DNA of 64,000 bases from Candidatus Woesearchaeota archaeon (GCA_964466575.1 CAYXNP010000002.1:30913-94912); one strand, 5' to 3'; numbered from the stretch's first letter, positions 25,021 through 37,316 are shown. Numbers and translations are program-made. Notes: generated from the sequence alone by a model not told the origin.

Positions 25021-26481
25021 ATGAAAAGAAAGATTTATTTGGTTTATCCGCATGAAAAAACGCATTTTGTGCGGCTGTCTTTGTCTTTACTTAGTGTTGC
25101 GTCGACATTAGAGCCGGCTGGGTATGATGTTAAAATAATTGACATGAGATTTCAAGATCACTTGAAGGTTAATTTTTCAGATGCTCTTTTTGTTGGTTTG
25201 ACGAGTTTTACTGGAAGTAACTTGAAATCTGGATTAGAATTCTCAAGATATATCAAGAAAAAATATCCGAAGGTGCCGATTGTTTGGGGGGGTGTTCATG
25301 CTTCGATTTTGTCAATTCAGACAATTAGGAATGAGAATGTAGATATTATTGTTCGTGGCGAGGGCGACGTAACTGTTGTAGAGCTTGCTGATGCTTTATC
25401 TAAGGGAAAACCATTGAATAAAATAAATGGACTGACATTTAAAGATAAAGACGGCAAGATTGTTAATACGCCTGAAAGGGAATTTATTGATATGAATAAA
25501 CTGCCGAAGCCAGCATATCATCTTGTTGATTTGACTAAGGCTGAGACAACTCTTGGGCATTTTCCTTATAATGGGAGCCGAGGTTGTCCGCACAGATGCA
25601 AGTTTTGTTTTAATGTTAATTTTCATAAACGAAAATGGAGGGGAGTTACTGCTGAGAGAACTTTGGATGATATAGAGGATATAATTAGAGTTTCCGGAGC
25701 AAAGGGAATTGAATTTACAGAAGATAATTTTTTTACGAATAAGGAAAGGATTAGACAAATTGCGCAGGGTTTGATTGACAGGAAAATAAAAATTACTTGG
25801 GGGGCGGCTTGTCGAATGGATTATTTTGCTAAGTATGAAATTGAGTTTCTTAAGATGTTGAAGAGAAGTGGATTGGATTTAATGTCTGGCGGCGCAGAAT
25901 CAGGAAGTCAAAGAATTCTTGATTTGGTTGATAAGGATATAAAAGTTGAGGATACGATTGTTGCTGTTGCTAAGGCGAAAGAAGCGGGAATTATTCCGTG
26001 CTTGAGTTTTATTTATGGTGTTCCTAGTGAAACAAAAGAAGATGTTTTCAAGACGCTGAATTTGATTGATAAGTTAAAGAAAATAAATCCTGACACGCAG
26101 GTTAATGGAATTTTTGCGTTTACGATTTATCCTGGAGATCCGCTTGTTGAAGATTGTAAGAAGTTGGGATATAAAGAACCAAAGTCGTTGGAAGGTTGGG
26201 CGAATCATAATCTTTCTGATTTTAATACGCAGGTTTGGTTGAATAAAAAAGAGATTGCTTGGCTTGAGACGATTGGCGACATAATTCGGTTTGATTATTT
26301 TAATCAGACTGGAAGAGTTTATGATAATCTGAATGTGAAGTGGCATTATATTCCTTATTTGATTATGAGAGCTGTTTATACTGTTTCTGCGAGATTGAGA
26401 TGGAGACTAAGATATTTTCATCATGCATATGAATGGAGACTTTGGAGTTGGGTTAAGGAAAAGTATCTGGGGCATTTTTAG
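25021..26481 (+). CDS. Class B (B12-binding domain) radical SAM enzyme.
   Basis: The N-domain reads IYLVYPHEKT...VWGGVHASI. SRGCPHRCKFCFN is the CxxxCxxC motif. Confidence 0.85.
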   Translation: MKRKIYLVYPHEKTHFVRLSLSLLSVASTLEPAGYDVKIIDMRFQDHLKVNFSDALFVGLTSFTGSNLKSGLEFSRYIKKKYPKVPIVWGGVHASILSIQTIRNENVDIIVRGEGDVTVVELADALSKGKPLNKINGLTFKDKDGKIVNTPEREFIDMNKLPKPAYHLVDLTKAETTLGHFPYNGSRGCPHRCKFCFNVNFHKRKWRGVTAERTLDDIEDIIRVSGAKGIEFTEDNFFTNKERIRQIAQGLIDRKIKITWGAACRMDYFAKYEIEFLKMLKRSGLDLMSGGAESGSQRILDLVDKDIKVEDTIVAVAKAKEAGIIPCLSFIYGVPSETKEDVFKTLNLIDKLKKINPDTQVNGIFAFTIYPGDPLVEDCKKLGYKEPKSLEGWANHNLSDFNTQVWLNKKEIAWLETIGDIIRFDYFNQTGRVYDNLNVKWHYIPYLIMRAVYTVSARLRWRLRYFHHAYEWRLWSWVKEKYLGHF

Positions 26482-28340: not shown

Positions 28341-28577
28341 GTGCTTTATTTTTTTATGGGATTAGAAAATACAACTAATGATGAATCTGGAAAAAAGAAG
28401 CTTAGAATGAAAGATGTTGTTGATGCCGAGGCTTCGACTTTTGGGAATAATCCTCAATATTGGGAAACACACGAGGAAGTAGATGTTGGATATTATGCAA
28501 GAAAGTTTGTTTTTAGAGCAGCTTTGGGTGCAGGAATTCTTTATGGAGTTTTTTATTTGGCGAAGGAAGTTTGGTGA
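28341..28577 (+). CDS. Small hypothetical protein with a C-terminal hydrophobic helix.
   Basis: The ORF alone. The C-terminus reads AALGAGILYGVFYLA. Confidence 0.3.
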   Translation: MLYFFMGLENTTNDESGKKKLRMKDVVDAEASTFGNNPQYWETHEEVDVGYYARKFVFRAALGAGILYGVFYLAKEVW

Positions 28578-28616
28578 GATAGAAACACCTAAAAACTCTC
28601 CATATCTCTTTTTATC

Positions 28617-29559: not shown

Positions 29560-30342
29560 ATGGATGTACAAATAAAAAAAACAATTAAGGCAGGAAATTC
29601 TTCGGCAGTTGTGCTTCCAAGAGCATGGTTGAACAAGGAAGTAAGAATTGAGTTGGTAAAAAAAACACCAGAAATAATATTATATGATGTGCTTGAAATC
29701 TTAAAAAAGAACATTGATTTAGCATCAGTTATAGGCGTGTATTTAGTTGGAAGTTATGCAAGAGGAGAAGAAAACGAAAATAGCGACATAGATGTTTTAG
29801 TTATAACAAAAGCTATTGATAAAGAGATGATTAGCGAAGGAATATATAATTTATTAATAATCTCTCAGGAATTATTGCTTCAGAAATTAAACCATGACTT
29901 GTTTCCAATTGGACAGATGATAAAGGAGGCCGAGCCGCTCTTAAATTCCAACTATCTAAGCAGCATAGATGTTAAAGTAACTCAAAAAAATGTAAAATGG
30001 TATTTAGATACAACTAAAGAAAAATTAGAAATAATTCAGAAATATATTGAAGAGGCTAAAAGAAAAAATAAGAAATACCTTGAGGATAAAATTGCATATA
30101 CTCTTATCTTGAGAATACGGACACTTGAAATAATAAAAAATCTGGCAAAAAACAAGGATTACTCCAACAAAGATTTTTTGAGATTAATAAAAAGAATTTC
30201 AAATGGAAAGAACGTTTATGAAAGATATTTGGTTGTTAAAAACAACATGGAAGAAAAGAATGGAATAAGTATAGAAGAAGCTGAAAAATTATATGAATAT
30301 CTAAAAAAAGATTTGATTAAGGTTATTGGGATGGTGAGGTGA
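29560..30342 (+). CDS. Fusion of an AbrB/MazE-type swapped-hairpin DNA-binding domain, a minimal nucleotidyltransferase (MNT) and a helical C-terminal region.
   Basis: The N-terminus IKAGNSSAVVLPRAWL is the SpoVT/AbrB antitoxin signature. GVYLVGSYARGEENENSDIDVLVI is the GS-x9-DxD polymerase-beta-like NTase motif. Confidence 0.65.
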   Translation: MDVQIKKTIKAGNSSAVVLPRAWLNKEVRIELVKKTPEIILYDVLEILKKNIDLASVIGVYLVGSYARGEENENSDIDVLVITKAIDKEMISEGIYNLLIISQELLLQKLNHDLFPIGQMIKEAEPLLNSNYLSSIDVKVTQKNVKWYLDTTKEKLEIIQKYIEEAKRKNKKYLEDKIAYTLILRIRTLEIIKNLAKNKDYSNKDFLRLIKRISNGKNVYERYLVVKNNMEEKNGISIEEAEKLYEYLKKDLIKVIGMVR

Positions 30343-30411
30343 AAAGGGGGAGTGAAAATTGTCTTTGGGAGGAATAGAAAACCCTAAAAACTCTTTAAAC
30401 CCTTATAATCT

Positions 30412-31461
30412 ATGAGTAAAAGATATAAAATAGTTAAAAAAGAACAAGAAGGATTTAGACATAAAATCCCTATAGCTGGTGAAATGATCGAAGTATTAAG
30501 AGATGATTTAGATATCGACAAGATAAACTTAGACCCAGAAAATCCCCGTATTGGTTATTGGTCAGATAATCAGATCAAAAAAGAATTTTCACAAGATGAA
30601 ATAGCCTTTGCACTAAGGGAAAAATCAGATGATGTAAACCGATTGAAACTAAGTATAGAAATACATGAAGGAATAATGAATCCTATATGGATCTATAAAA
30701 AAGAGGGAAAATTTTTAGTGATAGATGGAAATACTCGTTTAGAAATCTTTAAGGATCTTAGAAGAAAATATCCTAATAAAGATAATTACAAGAAGATACC
30801 TTGTGAGATTCTTCCTGAGAATGTTGGAGAAAAGGTTAAAAATTTTATAAGACTTATGCAACATTTAAGGGGAGTTAATGATTGGGAAGTTTATGAAAGG
30901 GCAAGAATGTTATATATTTTATGGGACAAAAGAGGCTATACTGAAGAGGAATTGCAAAGCCAAACAAAACTTAATAAAAGTCAAATTAGGAGATGGATAG
31001 AGGCTTATAAAAATATGACTGAACAATTCCTTCCAGAATATGGATCACAAAATGATGCTTTGAGTAAATTTTCTTATTTTGTTGAATATGAAAATCCAAA
31101 AATTAAACAAGGTATGGAAGAAATTAAATTATCGATAAAAGATTTTTGTAAGTGGGTTGGTCTATCAGAAATTAAACGGGCACAAGATGTAAGAAATATC
31201 AAAAAAATATTCGAAGATAAAAAATCAACAGAAATATTAGTTAGAAGGGGATATAAATGTGCAATTGAAGAACTAAGTGTAGTAAAACCCGAAATTTCTT
31301 CTAAACTCTTTGAAGCAATAGAAGAGGTTTTAGATGGATTAAAAGAGATGACTCGAATGGAGGAGGAGGAAATAACCGATGGGGATTCTCCCCAAAAAAG
31401 AATTTTAATTAAGAATCTTTCTTTAGAACTTGAGAAAATGATAAATAAGTTCAAAGAGTAA
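30412..31461 (+). CDS. ParB/Sulfiredoxin-superfamily (ParB-like nuclease / DUF262-like) domain protein.
   Basis: INLDPENPRIGYW...IHEGIMNPIWIY...LVIDGNTRLEIF. The DGNTR motif occupies the position of DGQQR in DUF262, DGQHR in DndB and GERRxRA in ParB. The C-terminal 200 aa are unassigned. Confidence 0.6.
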   Translation: MSKRYKIVKKEQEGFRHKIPIAGEMIEVLRDDLDIDKINLDPENPRIGYWSDNQIKKEFSQDEIAFALREKSDDVNRLKLSIEIHEGIMNPIWIYKKEGKFLVIDGNTRLEIFKDLRRKYPNKDNYKKIPCEILPENVGEKVKNFIRLMQHLRGVNDWEVYERARMLYILWDKRGYTEEELQSQTKLNKSQIRRWIEAYKNMTEQFLPEYGSQNDALSKFSYFVEYENPKIKQGMEEIKLSIKDFCKWVGLSEIKRAQDVRNIKKIFEDKKSTEILVRRGYKCAIEELSVVKPEISSKLFEAIEEVLDGLKEMTRMEEEEITDGDSPQKRILIKNLSLELEKMINKFKE

Positions 31462-31462
31462 A

Positions 31463-31894
31463 ATGGCAACATCTAACTCCCATCAATTAATTCTTGGTTT
31501 AATAGCAAGAAGAATGAGAGAAAAGGGATATCTTGTTATTAGTTTTGATGGTCATGAATCTTTGATTGGAGATTTGTCATTAAATGCTCCAAAAAAAATA
31601 AAGAGACATAAGCCAGATTTGATCGGTATAAACTTGGAAGACAAAAGAATTTGTATTGGTGAGGCCAAAACTTCTTCCGATTTAAATTCAAAGAGAACTA
31701 AAGAACAATTCTTAGACTTTTCTTGTTTAATGACTAAATCTCAAAGATTATGTGAATTAATCATCGGAATCCCAAAATCATCAGAAAAGGAATTATTATA
31801 TCTGCTACAAAACTTAAAACTTTTAAATAAATCCAATATTTCCTATATCTGGATGCCTGATGATTTATTAGTTGAGGAAGAGAATGGAATTTAA
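31463..31894 (+). CDS. Small PD-(D/E)xK-fold nuclease-like protein.
   Basis: HKPDLIGINLEDKRICIGEAKT gives the PD...(E)xK arrangement. It is translationally coupled to its neighbours (2-nt gap upstream, 23-nt overlap downstream). Confidence 0.4.
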   Translation: MATSNSHQLILGLIARRMREKGYLVISFDGHESLIGDLSLNAPKKIKRHKPDLIGINLEDKRICIGEAKTSSDLNSKRTKEQFLDFSCLMTKSQRLCELIIGIPKSSEKELLYLLQNLKLLNKSNISYIWMPDDLLVEEENGI

Positions 31895-33311
31895 TTTTTC
31901 TTCAAAGACTTTAGCCATGCCCCATCAAATAGAAGCAATAGAATTTATTAAAGGTAATAAAAGCCTAGCGTTGTTTGATGAACAGGGTTTAGGTAAGAGC
32001 AAGATTGTTATATCTGCTCTTTGTGAAGACTTAAAGAATAAGATTATTGATTCGGTTTTGATTTTATGTAAAAAAACATTAGTGAAAACTTGGAAAAACG
32101 AGTTGCTAAAACATTCTTATCTAAAAACAAATGTTATTGTAGGGTCTAAGCAAAATAGGGGGAGATCTTTTATGCATTTTTCTCATTTTCATATTATAAA
32201 CTATGATTCTTTTGTTCAGGAGTTAGATAAAATTAAGCTTTTTTTAGGATTATATAAATTTGCAATTATTCTTGATGAATCACAAGTAATTAAAAATCCA
32301 TCGTCAAGAATAACAAAATCAGTTTTAGATATTAAGGATCTAGGGGTCAAAAGAATAATTATTACAGGTACTCCTATTGCAAACAAGCCAGAGGATTTGT
32401 GGTCTCAGTTTTATTTTTTGGATAACGGGGAAACACTAGGGAAAGATTTTAAGGAGTTTCAGAAAAAGTTTCGAATACAATTAAAAGGTGAAACTTCTTT
32501 AAAAAAATATGAAAACATTTTAGATTCAATTAAGCAAAAGATAAACAAAATATCAATTAGAAGAACAAAAAATGTCCTAGAATTACCAGAAAAATTATAT
32601 CGTGAAGTTTTTGTAGTTCTTGAGAAAGAACAAAAAAGAATGTATGAAAAATTAAGGGGGGAATTATACTTAGAACTTAAAGATATTGATGACAATTTAA
32701 TATTAGAAAAAATAGATAATTACCTAGTTAAATTATTGAGATTAACTCAAATAGCAAGTAACCCTTCACTTTTAGAAGAAGGATATAAAGATACGCCTGC
32801 AAAATTTAAAGAACTAGACAAATTAATAAAAGATATTCTAGATAAAAATGAAAAAGTCATAATTTGGACAAGTTTTAGAGGAAATATAAGAACTCTAAGA
32901 AAAAGGTATCAGGATTATGGAGCTCTTATGCTCTTTGGAGAAATTCCAATGGCTGAAAGAGATGATATCATAGAAAAGTTTATGCAAAATCTAGAAATTA
33001 AGATATTAATAGCTAATCCATCTGCCGCAAAAGACGGGTTGACTCTTACATCAGCGAATAATGTCATATATCTTGATAGAAGTTTTAAAATGGACGATTA
33101 TCTTCAATCGCAAGATCGCATACATAGGATAGGTCAACAAAAAAAGTGTCAGATTATTAAATTAATAGCAAAAGATACTATCGACGAATATACTGATGAA
33201 ATACTTGAAAAGAAACATTTATTAGCACAATTTGCTCTTGGAGATACAGATCATATTCATGAAAGAAATAAATTTTTAACTAAGGACGAGCTACTAAAGA
33301 TTTTAGGATAA
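31872..33311 (+). CDS. Compact SNF2-family (SWI2/SNF2) helicase/translocase.
   Basis: The Q-region is AMPHQIEAI, motif I is DEQGLGKSK, motif II is ILDESQVIKN and motif VI is QSQDRIHRIGQQKKCQIIKL. At 479 aa it carries both RecA-like lobes. Confidence 0.8.
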   Translation: MRKRMEFNFSSKTLAMPHQIEAIEFIKGNKSLALFDEQGLGKSKIVISALCEDLKNKIIDSVLILCKKTLVKTWKNELLKHSYLKTNVIVGSKQNRGRSFMHFSHFHIINYDSFVQELDKIKLFLGLYKFAIILDESQVIKNPSSRITKSVLDIKDLGVKRIIITGTPIANKPEDLWSQFYFLDNGETLGKDFKEFQKKFRIQLKGETSLKKYENILDSIKQKINKISIRRTKNVLELPEKLYREVFVVLEKEQKRMYEKLRGELYLELKDIDDNLILEKIDNYLVKLLRLTQIASNPSLLEEGYKDTPAKFKELDKLIKDILDKNEKVIIWTSFRGNIRTLRKRYQDYGALMLFGEIPMAERDDIIEKFMQNLEIKILIANPSAAKDGLTLTSANNVIYLDRSFKMDDYLQSQDRIHRIGQQKKCQIIKLIAKDTIDEYTDEILEKKHLLAQFALGDTDHIHERNKFLTKDELLKILG

Positions 33312-33315
33312 GAAT

Positions 33316-34431
33316 ATGGAAGAAAAAAATTATATTAATCTAGGAGGAGAAAAAATTCTCGTAAAGACTGAAATGATAGATATTTTTAAATTGAAGTATT
33401 ATCCAGAGAATCCGAGAATACTATCTATTATAAAACAAAATCCAGAAATCAAAAAGGACGAAAAGCTAATAGAAGAAAAGTTGTGGGATGATGATGATAC
33501 CCATAAATTATTTCGAAGTATAGAACACCATGGCGGATTAATAAATCCAATAATAGTGCATGATAATTATGTTCTTGAAGGGAATACTAGATTGTGTTGT
33601 TTTAGAAGATTATATGCGCAAAATAAAGAAGATAAGTGGAAATTTATTAGATGTGAGGTTTTATTAATAAAAAAATTACCAAAAGAAAAAATAGATATAT
33701 TATTAGGAAATGAGCATATAATAGGCAAAATAGAATGGAATACTTATGAAAAGGGGTGTTGGATGACAAAGATGTTGAAAGAAGATGATTATGGTATAGA
33801 TAAGATCAAGGAAATAGTTGGTAATTCTGAAATATGGATCAAACAGCAGATCTCAGCTTATGAAATTATGGTAAAAGAAAAAATAAATGATAATAAAAAG
33901 TTTAGCCACCTCGTTCAATTAGTCTCAAATGATCAGATTAGACAAATAGAAAAAAATAAAGACCCTAAAATAAAAGAGAAGATCATTAAGGCTATTAAAA
34001 ATGACCAATTTAAAACTGCGCATGATATACGTAAAATTCCCGTAGTTTATGAAGACAAGGAATCCAGAAAAAGGCTTTTTGAATATGGTGAATCTATTGA
34101 GCAGATATTTTATGACTTAAAATCTGAACATCCAACTCGTGGTTCTCCATTTATTCGTGTAGTTGAAGATTTAACGCAAAGAGCTAGCGAATTAACTAGA
34201 AAAGAAAGAGCAGAAATAGCAGAAGATATAGCACAAAAGGATAAAATAAAAAGATTAGCATGCGAATTAAAGAAACTCTGTTCAGAATTAAAAAAAGAGG
34301 GTTTATCTAAAATAGATGAGAAAATAAGAGGGATAAAAATACTAAAAATTGTTGGAAAAGCTAAAGAAGAGGATTTAAAAAAATTGGAAAGAGAAAAAGA
34401 AAATTTGGAAAAAGAAGAGTTTTTGGAATAG
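33316..34431 (+). CDS. Second ParB-like (DUF262-like) domain protein, paralogous to 30412-31461.
   Basis: LKYYPENPRIL...HHGGLINPIIVHDNYVLEGNTRLCCF has the same motif order as the first copy. The C-terminus is a K/E-rich coiled coil. Confidence 0.6.
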   Translation: MEEKNYINLGGEKILVKTEMIDIFKLKYYPENPRILSIIKQNPEIKKDEKLIEEKLWDDDDTHKLFRSIEHHGGLINPIIVHDNYVLEGNTRLCCFRRLYAQNKEDKWKFIRCEVLLIKKLPKEKIDILLGNEHIIGKIEWNTYEKGCWMTKMLKEDDYGIDKIKEIVGNSEIWIKQQISAYEIMVKEKINDNKKFSHLVQLVSNDQIRQIEKNKDPKIKEKIIKAIKNDQFKTAHDIRKIPVVYEDKESRKRLFEYGESIEQIFYDLKSEHPTRGSPFIRVVEDLTQRASELTRKERAEIAEDIAQKDKIKRLACELKKLCSELKKEGLSKIDEKIRGIKILKIVGKAKEEDLKKLEREKENLEKEEFLE

Positions 34432-34501
34432 GATTCTTGTTTAATTAATCACCCTAAAGTGATCAGAGATCTTTAAAAAGATCACTTTCTTTATACTTTT
34501 A

Positions 34502-35842
34502 ATGAAAAAAAGAGTATTACTTGTTGAGCCAGACTTTCCTTATCCTAATAGATCTAAAAATAGGGCAAATGATATTCATAAAAATTTTGTTCCAATTGGA
34601 TTATTAAAATTAGGTTCATTAAACAAGGCGAAGGGCAATTCAGTCAAACTAGTGAGGGGAAAAGTAAAGAAAGAAGAAATTGGTTTTATTCCAGATGAAA
34701 TTTTAATTACATCAATGTTTACTTATTGGTCAAATTATGTATGGGGGTGTGTTGAACATTATAGAAATTTATTTCCAAAAAAAAATATTTGGATTGGAGG
34801 GATTTATGTTACATTACACCATAACCAAGAAAAATTTAAGGATTTAACAAAAAGAAATAAAGTTAAATTTTTTGTAGGGGTTCATAATGAAGCAGAGAAT
34901 TTTTTACCTGATTATAGTTTAATTCCTCCCGTAGAATATCATGCAACCCATATTATGAGGGGATGTATAAGAAAATGTGATTTTTGTGGTGTTTGGAAGT
35001 TAGAACCAAAACTTAGTTTTAAAACATTAGAACAACTAAAAAAAGAATTAGATGGTGTTGGCAAGAATAATGTAATCTTTTTTGATAATAATTTCTTTGC
35101 AAATCCAAAGATTAAGGATATTCTAAAAAATCTAGCAGAGATAAGAATAAATGGTAAGCCAGTAACTTTTGAATCACAAAGTGGATTTGATGGTAGATTA
35201 CTAGAAAAAGATCCAGAACTCGCCATCCTGTTGAAGAAAGCAAGATTCAATAATGTGAGGATTGCATGGGATAATAGTGTTAAAGATAAAAAATCAATTA
35301 AAAAGCAAATTGATTTACTTAAGAGTGCGGAATATCCTTTAAAAGATATTTCTATTTTCATGATATATAATTTTGATGTTCCCTATGAAGAAATGATTAA
35401 AAAGTTAAATTTATGTAAAAAATGGGGTGTGCAAATAATAGATTGCAGATATAGGCCATTAGATTTAGATTATGATAATTATAGCCCCCACATGAGAAAA
35501 GGTCAACCAGAAGGAAGTTTTTACATTCACAAAAAAGCTGGCTGGACTGATAAAAAAATTAGGGATTTTAGAAGAAAGGTCCGGCAACAAAATATGGAAA
35601 TTAGATATGCTAATGGGGGAAAATATGATAAAAATATGGAAAAATGGAGTGCGATTCATAATACTTATAAATTTTTTAAATTAGGTCCACCACCCCTTTT
35701 AGAAAAAATTGATAAAAGTGACAAATTAAAAAAAAGGATCTTAATGTTAAACAAATTAAAGAATGATTATAAAAAGAAAGGAATTGGGAAAAAAGATTTA
35801 AGCAAGCTTTCTAAAAAAGAATTGGATGAATTTATTGGTTGA
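34502..35842 (+). CDS. Radical SAM enzyme with an N-terminal B12-binding-like Rossmann domain.
   Basis: VLLVEPDFPYPN...IGLLKLGS...IWIGGIYVTLH is the B12-domain-like region. HIMRGCIRKCDFCGVW is a CxxxCxxC motif near residue 155. The motif position makes QueE or viperin unlikely. Confidence 0.7.
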   Translation: MKKRVLLVEPDFPYPNRSKNRANDIHKNFVPIGLLKLGSLNKAKGNSVKLVRGKVKKEEIGFIPDEILITSMFTYWSNYVWGCVEHYRNLFPKKNIWIGGIYVTLHHNQEKFKDLTKRNKVKFFVGVHNEAENFLPDYSLIPPVEYHATHIMRGCIRKCDFCGVWKLEPKLSFKTLEQLKKELDGVGKNNVIFFDNNFFANPKIKDILKNLAEIRINGKPVTFESQSGFDGRLLEKDPELAILLKKARFNNVRIAWDNSVKDKKSIKKQIDLLKSAEYPLKDISIFMIYNFDVPYEEMIKKLNLCKKWGVQIIDCRYRPLDLDYDNYSPHMRKGQPEGSFYIHKKAGWTDKKIRDFRRKVRQQNMEIRYANGGKYDKNMEKWSAIHNTYKFFKLGPPPLLEKIDKSDKLKKRILMLNKLKNDYKKKGIGKKDLSKLSKKELDEFIG

Positions 35843-35908: not shown

Positions 35909-36064
35909 TCAAATAAAATATCTAGCAAGCCATCCAACTTGTAACAGGACTCCTAAAAACAAAAGCATACCTGCTCCTGCAATTCCCAATAACCAACCAA
36001 TGCCTCCAAATGCAAGCAAAATTGATGGTGGATTTTTTGCAATTATATAAATTAATGTATTCAT
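35909..36064 (-). CDS. Unannotated 51-aa hydrophobic glycine-zipper membrane peptide.
   Basis: Manual minus-strand translation gives MNTLIYIIAKNPPSILLAFGGIGWLLGIAGAGMLLFLGVLLQVGWLARYFI. A strong SD (aaggaggt) lies 8-10 nt upstream of the ATG. It falls below the ORF-track length cut-off. Confidence 0.45.
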   Translation of the reverse strand: MNTLIYIIAKNPPSILLAFGGIGWLLGIAGAGMLLFLGVLLQVGWLARYFI

Positions 36065-36255
36065 CTTATTCTAAACCTCCTTATACCTATCTACTCTTCT
36101 CAAGAATTCTCGAGTTTCGACCGAGTAAGCCGACCCCTTTTTTATTGAACAAAAACAAACAAATAAAAATTTCTAGACCTTCAGAAATTAATACATACAA
36201 ATAATTTGCATAGGAATGTTATATGTTCCCCAATCCTTTCCCCAACCCCCACACC

Positions 36256-36285
36256 CACTCAACTCCTCCCCAACCTATAACTTCC
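36256..36285. repeat. Direct repeat copy 1 (cactcaactcctccccaacctataacttcc), 30 bp.
   Basis: An exact 30-nt match to 37104-37133, found by eye. Confidence 0.8.
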
Positions 36286-36356
36286 ATCCTTCGGCAAATC
36301 TTTTATTTTCATCCTCTTCTCAAGAACTCTTCAATTATTAATATTTCTATATCCAA

Positions 36357-36725
36357 TCACTCACTAGAAAGTATCAAAGGACTGACGTATTCAGATTTTC
36401 TTAATGGTGGCATCGGTTGAACGAATTGCTTGCCTTTAGATTTCAGATTAACTAAAATTATCCATTGATTTCTAAATGATTTATAATCTAACCAAGCTTC
36501 ATCAAGTTGAGAAAGAAATTCCCTATCTATTTCTGAATTGAACGCTCCTAAAAACTCACTGGCATCCATAATTTCTATTCCATTAACTCTTTCATCTTTA
36601 TCTAAATCCAAAACAATATTCTCTGATACCTCTACACTTTCTTCCACACCTCTGTCAGAATTATAAATAGCTAAAATATCGTACTCATCATCATATAAAA
36701 ATTTGTATACCATAATTTTATTCAA
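36357..36725 (-). CDS. DUF2283-like small protein, a putative antitoxin partner.
   Basis: YDDEYDILAIY resembles the YDxEADxLYI signature of DUF2283. It lies 7 nt downstream of the 36732-37058 ORF on the same strand. Confidence 0.5.
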   Translation of the reverse strand: MNKIMVYKFLYDDEYDILAIYNSDRGVEESVEVSENIVLDLDKDERVNGIEIMDASEFLGAFNSEIDREFLSQLDEAWLDYKSFRNQWIILVNLKSKGKQFVQPMPPLRKSEYVSPLILSSE

Positions 36726-36731
36726 TATTCT

Positions 36732-37058
36732 TTAATTTATAAATCTTTTTTTCTTGTATTTTAATAAAGTTTTTCTTCCCAAAGGATAGGCAGTTATAAT
36801 CCTTATCTTATCTAAGAAAGTAATAGCATATACACGACCTTTCTTTTTTGAGTAAGCATAAAACAAAGCATATCTTATTTCATTAGTTTTATATTGCTTT
36901 TCTGTAAATATCAAGTCTTTATTAAGAAATAAATCCTCTATAATCTCTTCTTTGGTTGCACTTATTCTCTCTAAAAGGTAATTCTCATCCTTGCCAAAAA
37001 TAACCTCTTTATCAGAATATTTTTTGAGCAATTCTTTAACCTCTTTAGTGTAGTCCAT
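36732..37058 (-). CDS. Putative toxin, BrnT/DUF4258-like, paired with the DUF2283-like gene.
   Basis: RVYAITFLDKIRIITAYPLGRK resembles the C-terminal ...IRIISARkA motif of BrnT-type RNase toxins. The assignment is tentative. Confidence 0.35.
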   Translation of the reverse strand: MDYTKEVKELLKKYSDKEVIFGKDENYLLERISATKEEIIEDLFLNKDLIFTEKQYKTNEIRYALFYAYSKKKGRVYAITFLDKIRIITAYPLGRKTLLKYKKKRFIN

Positions 37059-37103
37059 TAATGAATGTGTTTATTAATATATTAAAGTCTTTTCCTCTAT
37101 CAC

Positions 37104-37133
37104 CACTCAACTCCTCCCCAACCTATAACTTCC
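37104..37133. repeat. Direct repeat copy 2, overlapping the 3' end of the minus-strand ORF 37107-37316.
   Basis: An exact 30-nt match to 36256-36285. Confidence 0.8.
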
Positions 37134-37316
37134 TTCTTCTTTCTCCTCCCTATAACCCGGATCTTGAACTTCCCTCATATGTTGTATCTTTTCACTTCCG
37201 CAGATGCTGCATTTGTAAATGTCGAAGACTTTAATGCCGTCTTGTAAAGCAGGCTCGACATATTCATGGAGTGTTTGCTTCCGATATGTTATGCAAAATA
37301 ATTCTTCTAGATTCAT
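37107..37316 (-). CDS. Small Cys-containing (Zn-ribbon-like, CSICGSEK) hypothetical protein. Its last nine codons are supplied by repeat copy 2.
   Basis: The ORF alone. The motifs are C-x28-CxxC. This may not be a real gene. Confidence 0.25.
   Translation of the reverse strand: MNLEELFCITYRKQTLHEYVEPALQDGIKVFDIYKCSICGSEKIQHMREVQDPGYREEKEEGSYRLGRS

Follow-up and report, generated by a model that had tools for sequence, protein, structure and literature searches.

A cassette of five co-oriented genes, about 5.4 kb long, lies at positions 30412-35842 of a 64,000-nucleotide (nt) stretch of DNA (the window) from a Candidatus Woesearchaeota archaeon (GCA_964466575.1, CAYXNP010000002.1:30913-94912). 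The cassette is real, is conserved as a unit, and is horizontally mobile. It encodes two ParB-like proteins, a small nuclease-like protein, an SNF2-type motor and a radical S-adenosylmethionine (SAM) enzyme. From the sequences of these proteins we propose a mobile defence system resembling restriction-modification (R-M), in which the radical SAM enzyme would serve a DNA-marking module, and ParB, nuclease and SNF2 proteins would make up a restriction module; we place about half of our confidence in this reading. The window is part of a 111-kb contig from a groundwater metagenome, and among named organisms Candidatus Woesearchaeota supply the closest relatives of its proteins. The five genes are as follows.

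30412-31461, plus strand: ParB-like protein 1 (ParB1), 349 amino acids (aa), from the open reading frame (ORF) listing
31463-31894, plus strand: stand-alone putative PD-(D/E)xK nuclease, 143 aa, with D52, E67 and K69
31872-33311, plus strand: predicted SNF2/Rad54-type double-stranded DNA translocase, 479 aa from TTG 31872 or 475 aa from ATG 31884
33316-34431, plus strand: ParB-like protein 2 (ParB2), a paralog of ParB1, 371 aa
34502-35842, plus strand: radical SAM enzyme, 446 aa

The ORFs were taken from a six-frame listing of the window, and each was found where an earlier reading, made from the sequence alone (the sequence-only reading), had placed it. Of the figures given there for the coupling of the genes, the gaps of 4 nt (SNF2 to ParB2) and 70 nt (ParB2 to the radical SAM gene) were confirmed, the supposed gap of 2 nt between ParB1 and the nuclease gene is 1 nt, and the 23-nt overlap of the nuclease and SNF2 genes holds only with the TTG 31872 start, being 11 nt with the ATG 31884 of public gene calls.

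Conservation and mobility of the cassette

Related loci were collected by scanning with an SNF2 alignment through one genome per species (59 loci) and through metagenomes (80 loci), and their partner genes were found among mechanically called six-frame ORFs with the window proteins and profiles derived from them. The same cassette was present almost everywhere in these loci, in many phyla of both domains. Its members were counted in the 40 loci whose SNF2 gene has 6 kb or more of sequence on either side (complete-flank loci). The nuclease gene was found in 39 of them, the exception (L050) having the nuclease fused to ParB1; at least two ParB paralogs were found in 38, and the radical SAM gene in 36, in several orders and orientations. 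With 36 of 40 loci carrying it, the radical SAM gene does not come apart from the ParB-SNF2 block. As a control, IMG/VR viral-contig loci with distant SNF2 proteins (27-30% identity) were searched: the partners were absent in 77 of 80, and the cassette was present in only two, both on provirus-labelled contigs. A phage origin, raised by PHROG matches, was rejected on this count and because the phage homologs of the radical SAM enzyme are distant (at most 33% identical, and in other contexts).

Two arrangements predominate. The gene order of the window, ParB-nuclease-SNF2-ParB-radical SAM, was seen in 15 loci. The second arrangement, mainly proteobacterial, has three ParB paralogs followed by the nuclease and SNF2 genes; its radical SAM gene lies close by, in many cases in divergent orientation. 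Archaeal hosts are Woesearchaeota, Pacearchaeota, Thermoplasmata, Methanosarcinales and Asgard archaea; bacterial hosts are Patescibacteria, Chloroflexia, Clostridia, Nitrospirota, Brocadia, Planctomycetes, Spirochaetes, Geobacter, Mesorhizobium, Bradyrhizobium and Variovorax. The SNF2 protein of the window is 67% identical to a Patescibacteria protein, versus 56-57% to other archaeal ones.

The flanks of the 59 genome loci held 182 Pfam families in 137 proteins and were unrelated from locus to locus. The only recurrent families were GHKL ATPases (10) and DndB-like proteins (3), which are accessories of larger variants of the cassette. Integrases, type I and type II methyltransferases, AbiEii-like ATPases, ArdC, MADS genes and VapBC were scattered among the remaining flank genes. 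PADLOC matches to mad2, mad3 and mad8 came from neighbouring systems in 2-3 loci, and a MADS link was dropped since these genes are not components of the cassette. On Rhizobium leguminosarum WSM1325 plasmid pR132505 the order is hypothetical, hypothetical, DEAD/DEAH helicase, ParB N-terminal domain protein, DGQHR protein, radical SAM and ATP-binding protein, and the cassette adjoins an integrase and two VapBC pairs. With heterogeneous flanks in 59 loci, and with the closest SNF2 homologs crossing the divide between bacteria and archaea, the cassette is not a syntenic housekeeping locus. In five copies from metagenome-assembled genomes (MAGs; L020, L045, L052, L056 and L057) the ParB, SNF2 or radical SAM gene is split into 2-3 ORFs; they may be true pseudogenes, as would suit accessory genes that can be dispensed with, or may stem from errors of assembly.

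The encoded proteins

ParB1 has an N-terminal ParB/Srx domain, a helix-turn-helix (HTH) and a helical C-terminal region, with the motifs LDxENPR, DGNTR and HLRG..W..YE(R/K)A. In an alignment of 32 family sequences N44, P45, R46, G106, N107, R109, H151 and W158 are invariant. The motifs of ParB2 are ENPR, EGNTR and HIIGK..W..YEK, and its window copy ends in a lysine/glutamate-rich C-terminal tail. The DGNTR that the sequence-only reading had assigned to both proteins is thus correct for ParB1 and not for ParB2; the family consensus is EGN(T/S)R. As single sequences the two proteins barely register in Pfam (HTH_23 for ParB1; ddrB-ParB at 1.7e-3 for ParB2), a PDB sequence search with ParB1 gave nothing meaningful, and in PADLOC ParB1 had local matches only (PDC-M38A, 5e-8; PD-Lambda-5_A, 5e-4). 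The 32-sequence ParB1 profile matched the structure of Noc (7ol9) at 8.9e-5, over the N-terminal domain and HTH (Noc residues 51-165), and also the ParB structures 7bnk and 4umk (about 1e-3), SbnI and sulfiredoxin. Pfam ParB_N was matched by 9 of the 32 ParB1 orthologs, and a Rhizobium ortholog of ParB2 is annotated as 'ParB N-terminal domain-containing protein'. When the ParB1 and ParB2 profiles were compared with hhalign, they aligned over their full length (325 columns, probability 100%, E 3.5e-62). Because the profiles align end to end, ParB1 and ParB2 are paralogs; by their NPR and GxxR motifs and these profile matches we assign both to the ParB/Srx superfamily, in agreement with the earlier claim. 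The canonical GERRxR and ENLQR CTPase boxes are replaced by NPR, GN(T/S)R and H(L/I)xG..W..YEK. With the boxes replaced and no ParA partner, the locus is not one of canonical partition.

The 143-aa protein gave no match as a single sequence in Pfam, NCBIfam, PADLOC or PHROGs, none of its 75 homologs had a Pfam domain, and its family profile found nothing meaningful among PDB sequences. For this protein and the ParB-like proteins single-sequence family scans are insufficient, and profiles and structure prediction were therefore needed. The predicted structure has a restriction-endonuclease fold with an intact D..ExK motif. In alignments D52, K69 and D73 are invariant and E67 nearly so, within the motifs hRPD and IGEAKT, and because of these conserved motifs we regard it as a minimal PD-(D/E)xK nuclease. 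The fold search placed HamA and the repair nuclease NucS among its structural neighbours. Both the predicted fold and the conserved residues back the sequence-only description of a PD-(D/E)xK-like protein, and D52, E67 and K69 are its putative catalytic residues. After clustering at 50% the family comprises 469 representatives (106 of them with E <= 1e-10), and nearly all are 120-150 aa long and stand alone. The nuclease gene always lies immediately upstream of the SNF2 gene, usually overlapping it, and follows a ParB paralog. At the exceptional locus in a Nitrospirota MAG (L050:8515-9987), ParB1 and the nuclease share one frame of 490 codons, with the nuclease profile at residues 356-490. This frame is either a natural fusion or the product of a lost stop codon; the SNF2 gene there is split, and the locus may be decaying or mis-assembled. 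The adjacency and overlap of the nuclease and SNF2 genes, the placement of ParB and the one fusion suggest a ParB-nuclease-motor effector.

The SNF2 protein consists of the motor core only, with its Walker A GLGKS, DESQ and QSQDRIHRIGQ motifs intact; GLGKS, DESQ and QDRIHRxGQ are invariant in the family alignment. Both lobes scored above the Pfam cut-offs (SNF2-rel_dom, 6.5e-31, 107.9 bits; Helicase_C, 4.8e-15, 56.2 bits), and among solved structures the Sulfolobus SWI2/SNF2 core gave the best match (1z63, 7.7e-50). These matches identify it, at the level of sequence, as an SNF2-family translocase, and its description as a compact one stands. The PADLOC matches, to ZorD (1e-60), DpdE (3e-38) and, weakly and partially, DrmD (2e-19) and DrmA (8e-6), cover the motor region only. 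In NCBIfam it fell far below every curated cut-off, with 90.8 versus 1500 for ZorD and 21.5 bits versus 500 for DpdE.

The radical SAM enzyme matched Pfam Radical_SAM at 7.3e-12. Its predicted model (mean predicted local distance difference test score, pLDDT, 82) shows a Rossmann/B12-binding-like domain at the N-terminus, a radical SAM barrel and, at the C-terminus, a helical domain; the active-site loop is of low confidence, as expected in a model without the cluster. The cluster motif is C155-x3-C159-x2-C162. The Rossmann domain and the single CX3CX2C motif bear out the description of a B12-domain-like radical SAM enzyme encoded 70 nt downstream of ParB2, and, as the protein is not a compact core without such an N-terminal domain, it was rightly taken to be neither QueE nor viperin. 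Only C155, C159 and C162 are conserved across orthologs, so that the enzyme lacks the auxiliary cluster of methylthiotransferases; C305 and C315, considered as catalytic cysteines of the RlmN/Cfr type, were dropped since they are not conserved across the family. Foldseek searches with the model returned MtaB, CysS, TokK and OxsB. Compared with B12-type radical SAM enzymes (AprD4, MgmA, CysS, TokK and TsrM) and with MiaB and RimO, the cassette enzyme differs in that identity is only 10-14%, no NCBIfam family reaches its cut-off, and its genetic surroundings favour nucleic acid over a metabolite or protein as the target; unlike the methylthiotransferases MiaB, RimO and MtaB, it has no N-terminal three-cysteine cluster. 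A PDB sequence search with the enzyme gave nothing meaningful, and PADLOC had no significant model for it, the nuclease, or the GHKL and PIN-like accessories. Across all cassette variants the radical SAM orthologs align over about 400 aa, with shared motifs in both domains, and at least 1865 of 8000 scored candidates reached E <= 1e-5. At one locus (L100:1410-4372, minus strand) the cassette enzyme is followed by a 487-aa protein with a weak B12-binding match (1.4e-5), an indication that some variants have a B12-type partner, either a duplicate or an accessory.

Another radical SAM gene, unrelated to that of the cassette, lies 4 kb upstream of it at 25021-26481. Its product is HpnJ/BchE-like (Pfam B12-binding, 1.8e-13; Radical_SAM, 1.7e-21). 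A homolog of it also occurs near the cassette in L031, which is probably a coincidence.

Proposed function and alternatives

Four complete-flank loci lack the radical SAM gene. Three of them (L019, L024 and L110) carry instead a D12-class (Dam-class) N6-adenine DNA methyltransferase gene on the same strand, 9-11 nt upstream of ParB1 (Pfam 2e-20, 6e-48 and 8e-46, respectively, with DPPY or DPPF motifs). No methyltransferase occupied this slot in any locus that contains the radical SAM gene. The three loci form one SNF2 clade, sharing 67-79% identity among themselves and no more than 54% with others. Beyond the D12 class, the L019 methyltransferase has no relationship to the L024 and L110 enzymes; thus a methyltransferase came to fill the slot at least once, and another later took its place.

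A second kind of variant joins the radical SAM enzyme to a known type of helper. In the larger variants (Nitrospirota/Brocadia, rhizobial and proteobacterial) the radical SAM gene adjoins that of a DGQHR protein, which matches DpdB in PADLOC at 2.6e-36. In the Dpd system the DNA transglycosylase DpdA has DpdB, a ParB-like ATPase, as its helper. On the Novosphingobium aromaticivorans plasmid pNL1 (L060, 58383-68740) the radical SAM, DGQHR and GHKL genes occur without SNF2 or the small nuclease, in a set encoding a PIN-like protein, a GHKL ATP-binding protein, a DGQHR protein, the radical SAM enzyme, an ATP-binding protein and a 770-aa DGQHR protein. Because it is found there without SNF2, the radical SAM-DGQHR-GHKL group behaves as a module of its own, and the pNL1 set may be a sister system. 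The methyltransferase swap, the DpdB-like neighbour and this separate module all point to a role of the radical SAM enzyme in DNA modification. Together with conservation as a unit, the swap and the DpdB-like partner support the earlier proposal of an undescribed defence or DNA-modification system, the function being deduced from gene content.

Searches with hidden Markov models were run for the cassette proteins, and no PADLOC or NCBIfam model, nor any openly searchable paper, subscription-only literature being outside the search, describes the combination of genes. A 2024 reappraisal of Dnd, which recurred among the literature matches, does not cover the cassette. Scans of the cassette proteins with Pfam, PADLOC and NCBIfam likewise agreed with the sequence-only reading that no tRNA-guanine transglycosylase (TGT), Dnd or methyltransferase gene is present.

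Several known systems share parts of the cassette. With Dpd it has in common a two-module logic, in which a ParB-superfamily helper stands beside the modifying enzyme (the DpdB-like DGQHR protein in the larger variants), and an SNF2-type motor in the restriction part, where the match to DpdE lies. In contrast to Dpd, neither the window proteins nor the recurrent flank families include the DpdA transglycosylase, DpdC or genes of the preQ0 pathway; the candidate modifying enzyme is a 446-aa B12-domain-type radical SAM enzyme, and the ParB-like proteins of the window are not DGQHR proteins. Type I, III and ISP R-M systems and DISARM, whose SNF2 protein is DrmD, also bring together a motor ATPase, a PD-(D/E)xK nuclease and a DNA-modifying enzyme, and the methyltransferase variant is in effect an atypical ATP-dependent R-M system. 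Unlike these, the cassette has no HsdS- or Mod-type specificity subunit and no DrmA, DrmB or DrmC; its motor has nothing beyond the SNF2 core, it requires two or three ParB-like proteins, and in most members the radical SAM enzyme replaces the methyltransferase. In Zorya (ZorD) and Hachiman (HamAB) a PD-(D/E)xK nuclease is likewise paired with a superfamily 2 motor, and ZorD is the best PADLOC match of the SNF2 protein; however, the cassette nuclease is a separate 143-aa protein, there is no ZorA, ZorB, ZorC or HamB-type helicase, the other four cassette proteins have no Zor matches, and neither known system has ParB-like or radical SAM proteins. In Dnd and Ssp a ParB-superfamily protein accompanies DNA-modifying machinery with an Fe-S enzyme, whereas the cassette lacks DndA, DndC, DndD and DndE as well as SspA, SspC and SspD, has GN(T/S)R in place of DGQHR, and has a radical SAM TIM-barrel as its Fe-S enzyme. 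ParABS and Noc share with the cassette the ParB_N fold followed by an HTH, but the cassette and its recurrent neighbours include no ParA, and the ParB-like proteins are accompanied instead by a conserved nuclease, SNF2 motor and radical SAM enzyme. By these analogies the cassette would work most like Dpd, DISARM or ATP-dependent R-M, with an effector that resembles ZorD or HamAB.

Under the R-M-like reading, the marking module, made of the radical SAM enzyme with ParB2 in the compact version or with the DpdB-like DGQHR protein in the larger versions, would covalently mark the cell's own DNA. The ParB-type partner may bind or open the DNA, possibly with nucleoside triphosphate (NTP), as DpdB does for DpdA and SspB for the Ssp enzymes. 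In the restriction module ParB1 would recruit or license a complex of the 143-aa nuclease and the SNF2 protein, which would track along duplex DNA and cut DNA that does not bear the mark. More specifically, the radical SAM enzyme and its ParB-superfamily partner may install a new mark made by radical chemistry, for example a C-methyl group or another carbon-centred adduct, as a label of 'self'; this narrower proposal is tentative, and we think it clearly less probable than the R-M-like reading as a whole. It is from the composition of the cassette that we infer DNA as the radical SAM substrate, the nature of the mark, the protein-protein contacts, NTP use by the ParB-like proteins and an anti-phage or anti-plasmid activity.

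Several points weigh against the R-M-like reading. The loci were gathered by SNF2 similarity and come mostly from MAG or metagenome contigs, and known defence genes are occasional neighbours only. The radical SAM enzyme might act on RNA, protein or a small molecule instead of DNA. Its fold does not reveal its chemistry, because the nearest structural relatives span methylases, methylthiotransferases and a dehydratase, and the use of cobalamin would be awkward for hosts of the DPANN group and the Candidate Phyla Radiation (CPR). NTP use by the ParB-like proteins is conjectural because the GERRxR and ENLQR boxes are absent. Since the methyltransferases are confined to one SNF2 clade, the radical SAM gene was displaced in one or two evolutionary events and not in three independent ones. 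Finally, one complete locus (L038) has neither a radical SAM gene nor a methyltransferase gene within 10 kb, which strict R-M logic would not predict.

This last locus, together with the variable position of the radical SAM gene, favours the main alternative, a defence that is independent of modification. The ParB-like proteins would then be NTP-gated clamps or sensors that load on DNA entering the cell or on intermediates of replication or transfer, and would license the SNF2-nuclease pair, with the radical SAM enzyme as a regulator or a second effector, for example by radical damage to DNA or by production of an antiviral metabolite. The swap of the radical SAM gene for a methyltransferase and the DpdB-like neighbour point to DNA modification, and we consider this alternative unlikely, roughly a fifth of our confidence going to it.

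It is more doubtful still that the cassette serves a mobile element instead of host immunity, acting in the maintenance of plasmids or islands, in entry exclusion or in competition with rivals, as does the ParB/Srx protein Osa. ParB/Srx proteins are known weapons in plasmid-plasmid conflicts. Copies of the cassette occur on rhizobial and Roseomonas plasmids, several of them conjugative, near integrase and VapBC genes; ArdC and MPTase-PolyVal genes are present in two flanks, and the two provirus-labelled contigs also fit. Most loci, however, belong to long contigs of chromosomal origin, among them a closed Asgard chromosome of 2.76 Mb, and no ParA, relaxase or replication gene is consistently linked. 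A nuclease, an SNF2 motor and a modification enzyme suit restriction better than partition. This alternative also overlaps the R-M-like reading, R-M systems being themselves selfish and mobile. A housekeeping role in chromosome segregation or DNA repair, with the radical SAM enzyme acting by analogy with spore photoproduct lyase, would agree with the ParB-like domain order with HTH, the Rad54-like Sulfolobus enzyme closest to the SNF2 core and the structural nearness of NucS to the nuclease, but it is contradicted by the distribution, the missing ParA and the methyltransferase variant, and we regard it as very improbable.

The window copy in its setting, and implications

Two elements in the window were considered as possible regulatory sites of the cassette.

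30368-30394, plus strand: 27-nt motif GGAGGAATAGAAAACCCTAAAAACTCT, a candidate promoter or operator whose membership of the system is tentative
34456-34488, no strand assigned: perfect 9-bp inverted repeat AAAGTGATC / GATCACTTT with a 15-nt spacer, read off the sequence

The 27-nt motif (consensus GGnGrrATAGAAAmmCCTAAAAACTCT) occurs exactly twice in the window, at 28573-28599 and 30368-30394, with zero matches expected from 100 shuffles. Each copy ends 17 nt before an ATG, that of a Cas4-like gene and that of ParB1, respectively, which suggests a shared promoter or operator of the two genes. A possible reader of the motif is the protein encoded between the copies (29560-30342), which has a faint match of the AbrB/MazE type. 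The inverted repeat lies in the 70 nt that separate ParB2 from the radical SAM gene and contains an AGATCT palindrome; it could be an operator, an RNA hairpin or an attenuator. A scan for promoters of the sigma-70 type and for terminators gave no signal above that of shuffled sequences, the sigma-70 model being ill-suited to an archaeon.

Upstream of the cassette are genes for the Cas4-like protein (Pfam PDDEXK_1, 1.7e-11) and a nucleotidyltransferase protein (NTP_transf_2, 1e-10; AbrB/MazE-type match at E 0.078). Downstream are a minus-strand DUF2283 gene (36357-36725) and a weakly BrnT-like gene (36732-37058), and beyond this pair lie glycosyltransferase genes. A 34-nt direct repeat, 97% identical, flanks the pair (36255-36288 and 37103-37136) and resembles the trace that a small toxin-antitoxin cassette would leave on insertion; it does not enclose the five-gene cassette. 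The sequence-only reading had placed the cassette in a defence island. The Cas4-like and nucleotidyltransferase neighbours that it named were confirmed, with the AbrB match faint; its toxin-antitoxin cassette with integration scars corresponds to the repeat-flanked DUF2283/BrnT-like pair, whose BrnT match is weak, and the island is only moderately supported. The surroundings are compatible with a small accessory island, which is not proof of one.

The GC content of the cassette (0.28-0.29) is slightly under that of its flanks (0.33-0.35). As equally low stretches occur elsewhere in the window, this is weak evidence of foreign origin. Both a tRNA scan and an Rfam scan of the window were empty, so that there is no tRNA-linked integration site, and a search for a cassette-free variant of the window genome brought up only contigs with the same arrangement.

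The stretch of about 500 nt past the radical SAM gene that appears non-coding contains a minus-strand ORF (35912-36064) for a very hydrophobic peptide of 51 aa (MNTLIYIIAKNPPSILLAFGGIGWLLGIAGAGMLLFLGVLLQVGWLARYFI), which is absent from public gene calls.

If the R-M-like reading is correct, radical SAM chemistry would join the few chemistries that mark DNA as self or non-self, namely methylation, phosphorothioation, 7-deazaguanine and glucosylation, and the cassette would be the first R-M-type immunity with a radical SAM modification enzyme, common to bacteria and archaea including DPANN and CPR members. A large unannotated radical SAM family and a ParB subfamily without a function would gain a defined role, and a new DNA modification with its motor-nuclease reader would be relevant to phage-host biology, epigenomic sequencing and biotechnology. 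The cassette is directly testable, since it is compact and is present in cultivable rhizobia and Geobacter besides the tiny genomes of DPANN and CPR organisms. Even if the substrate of the radical SAM enzyme is not DNA, a core of two ParB-like proteins, a nuclease and an SNF2 motor that spans both domains and lies outside the defence catalogues merits characterisation.

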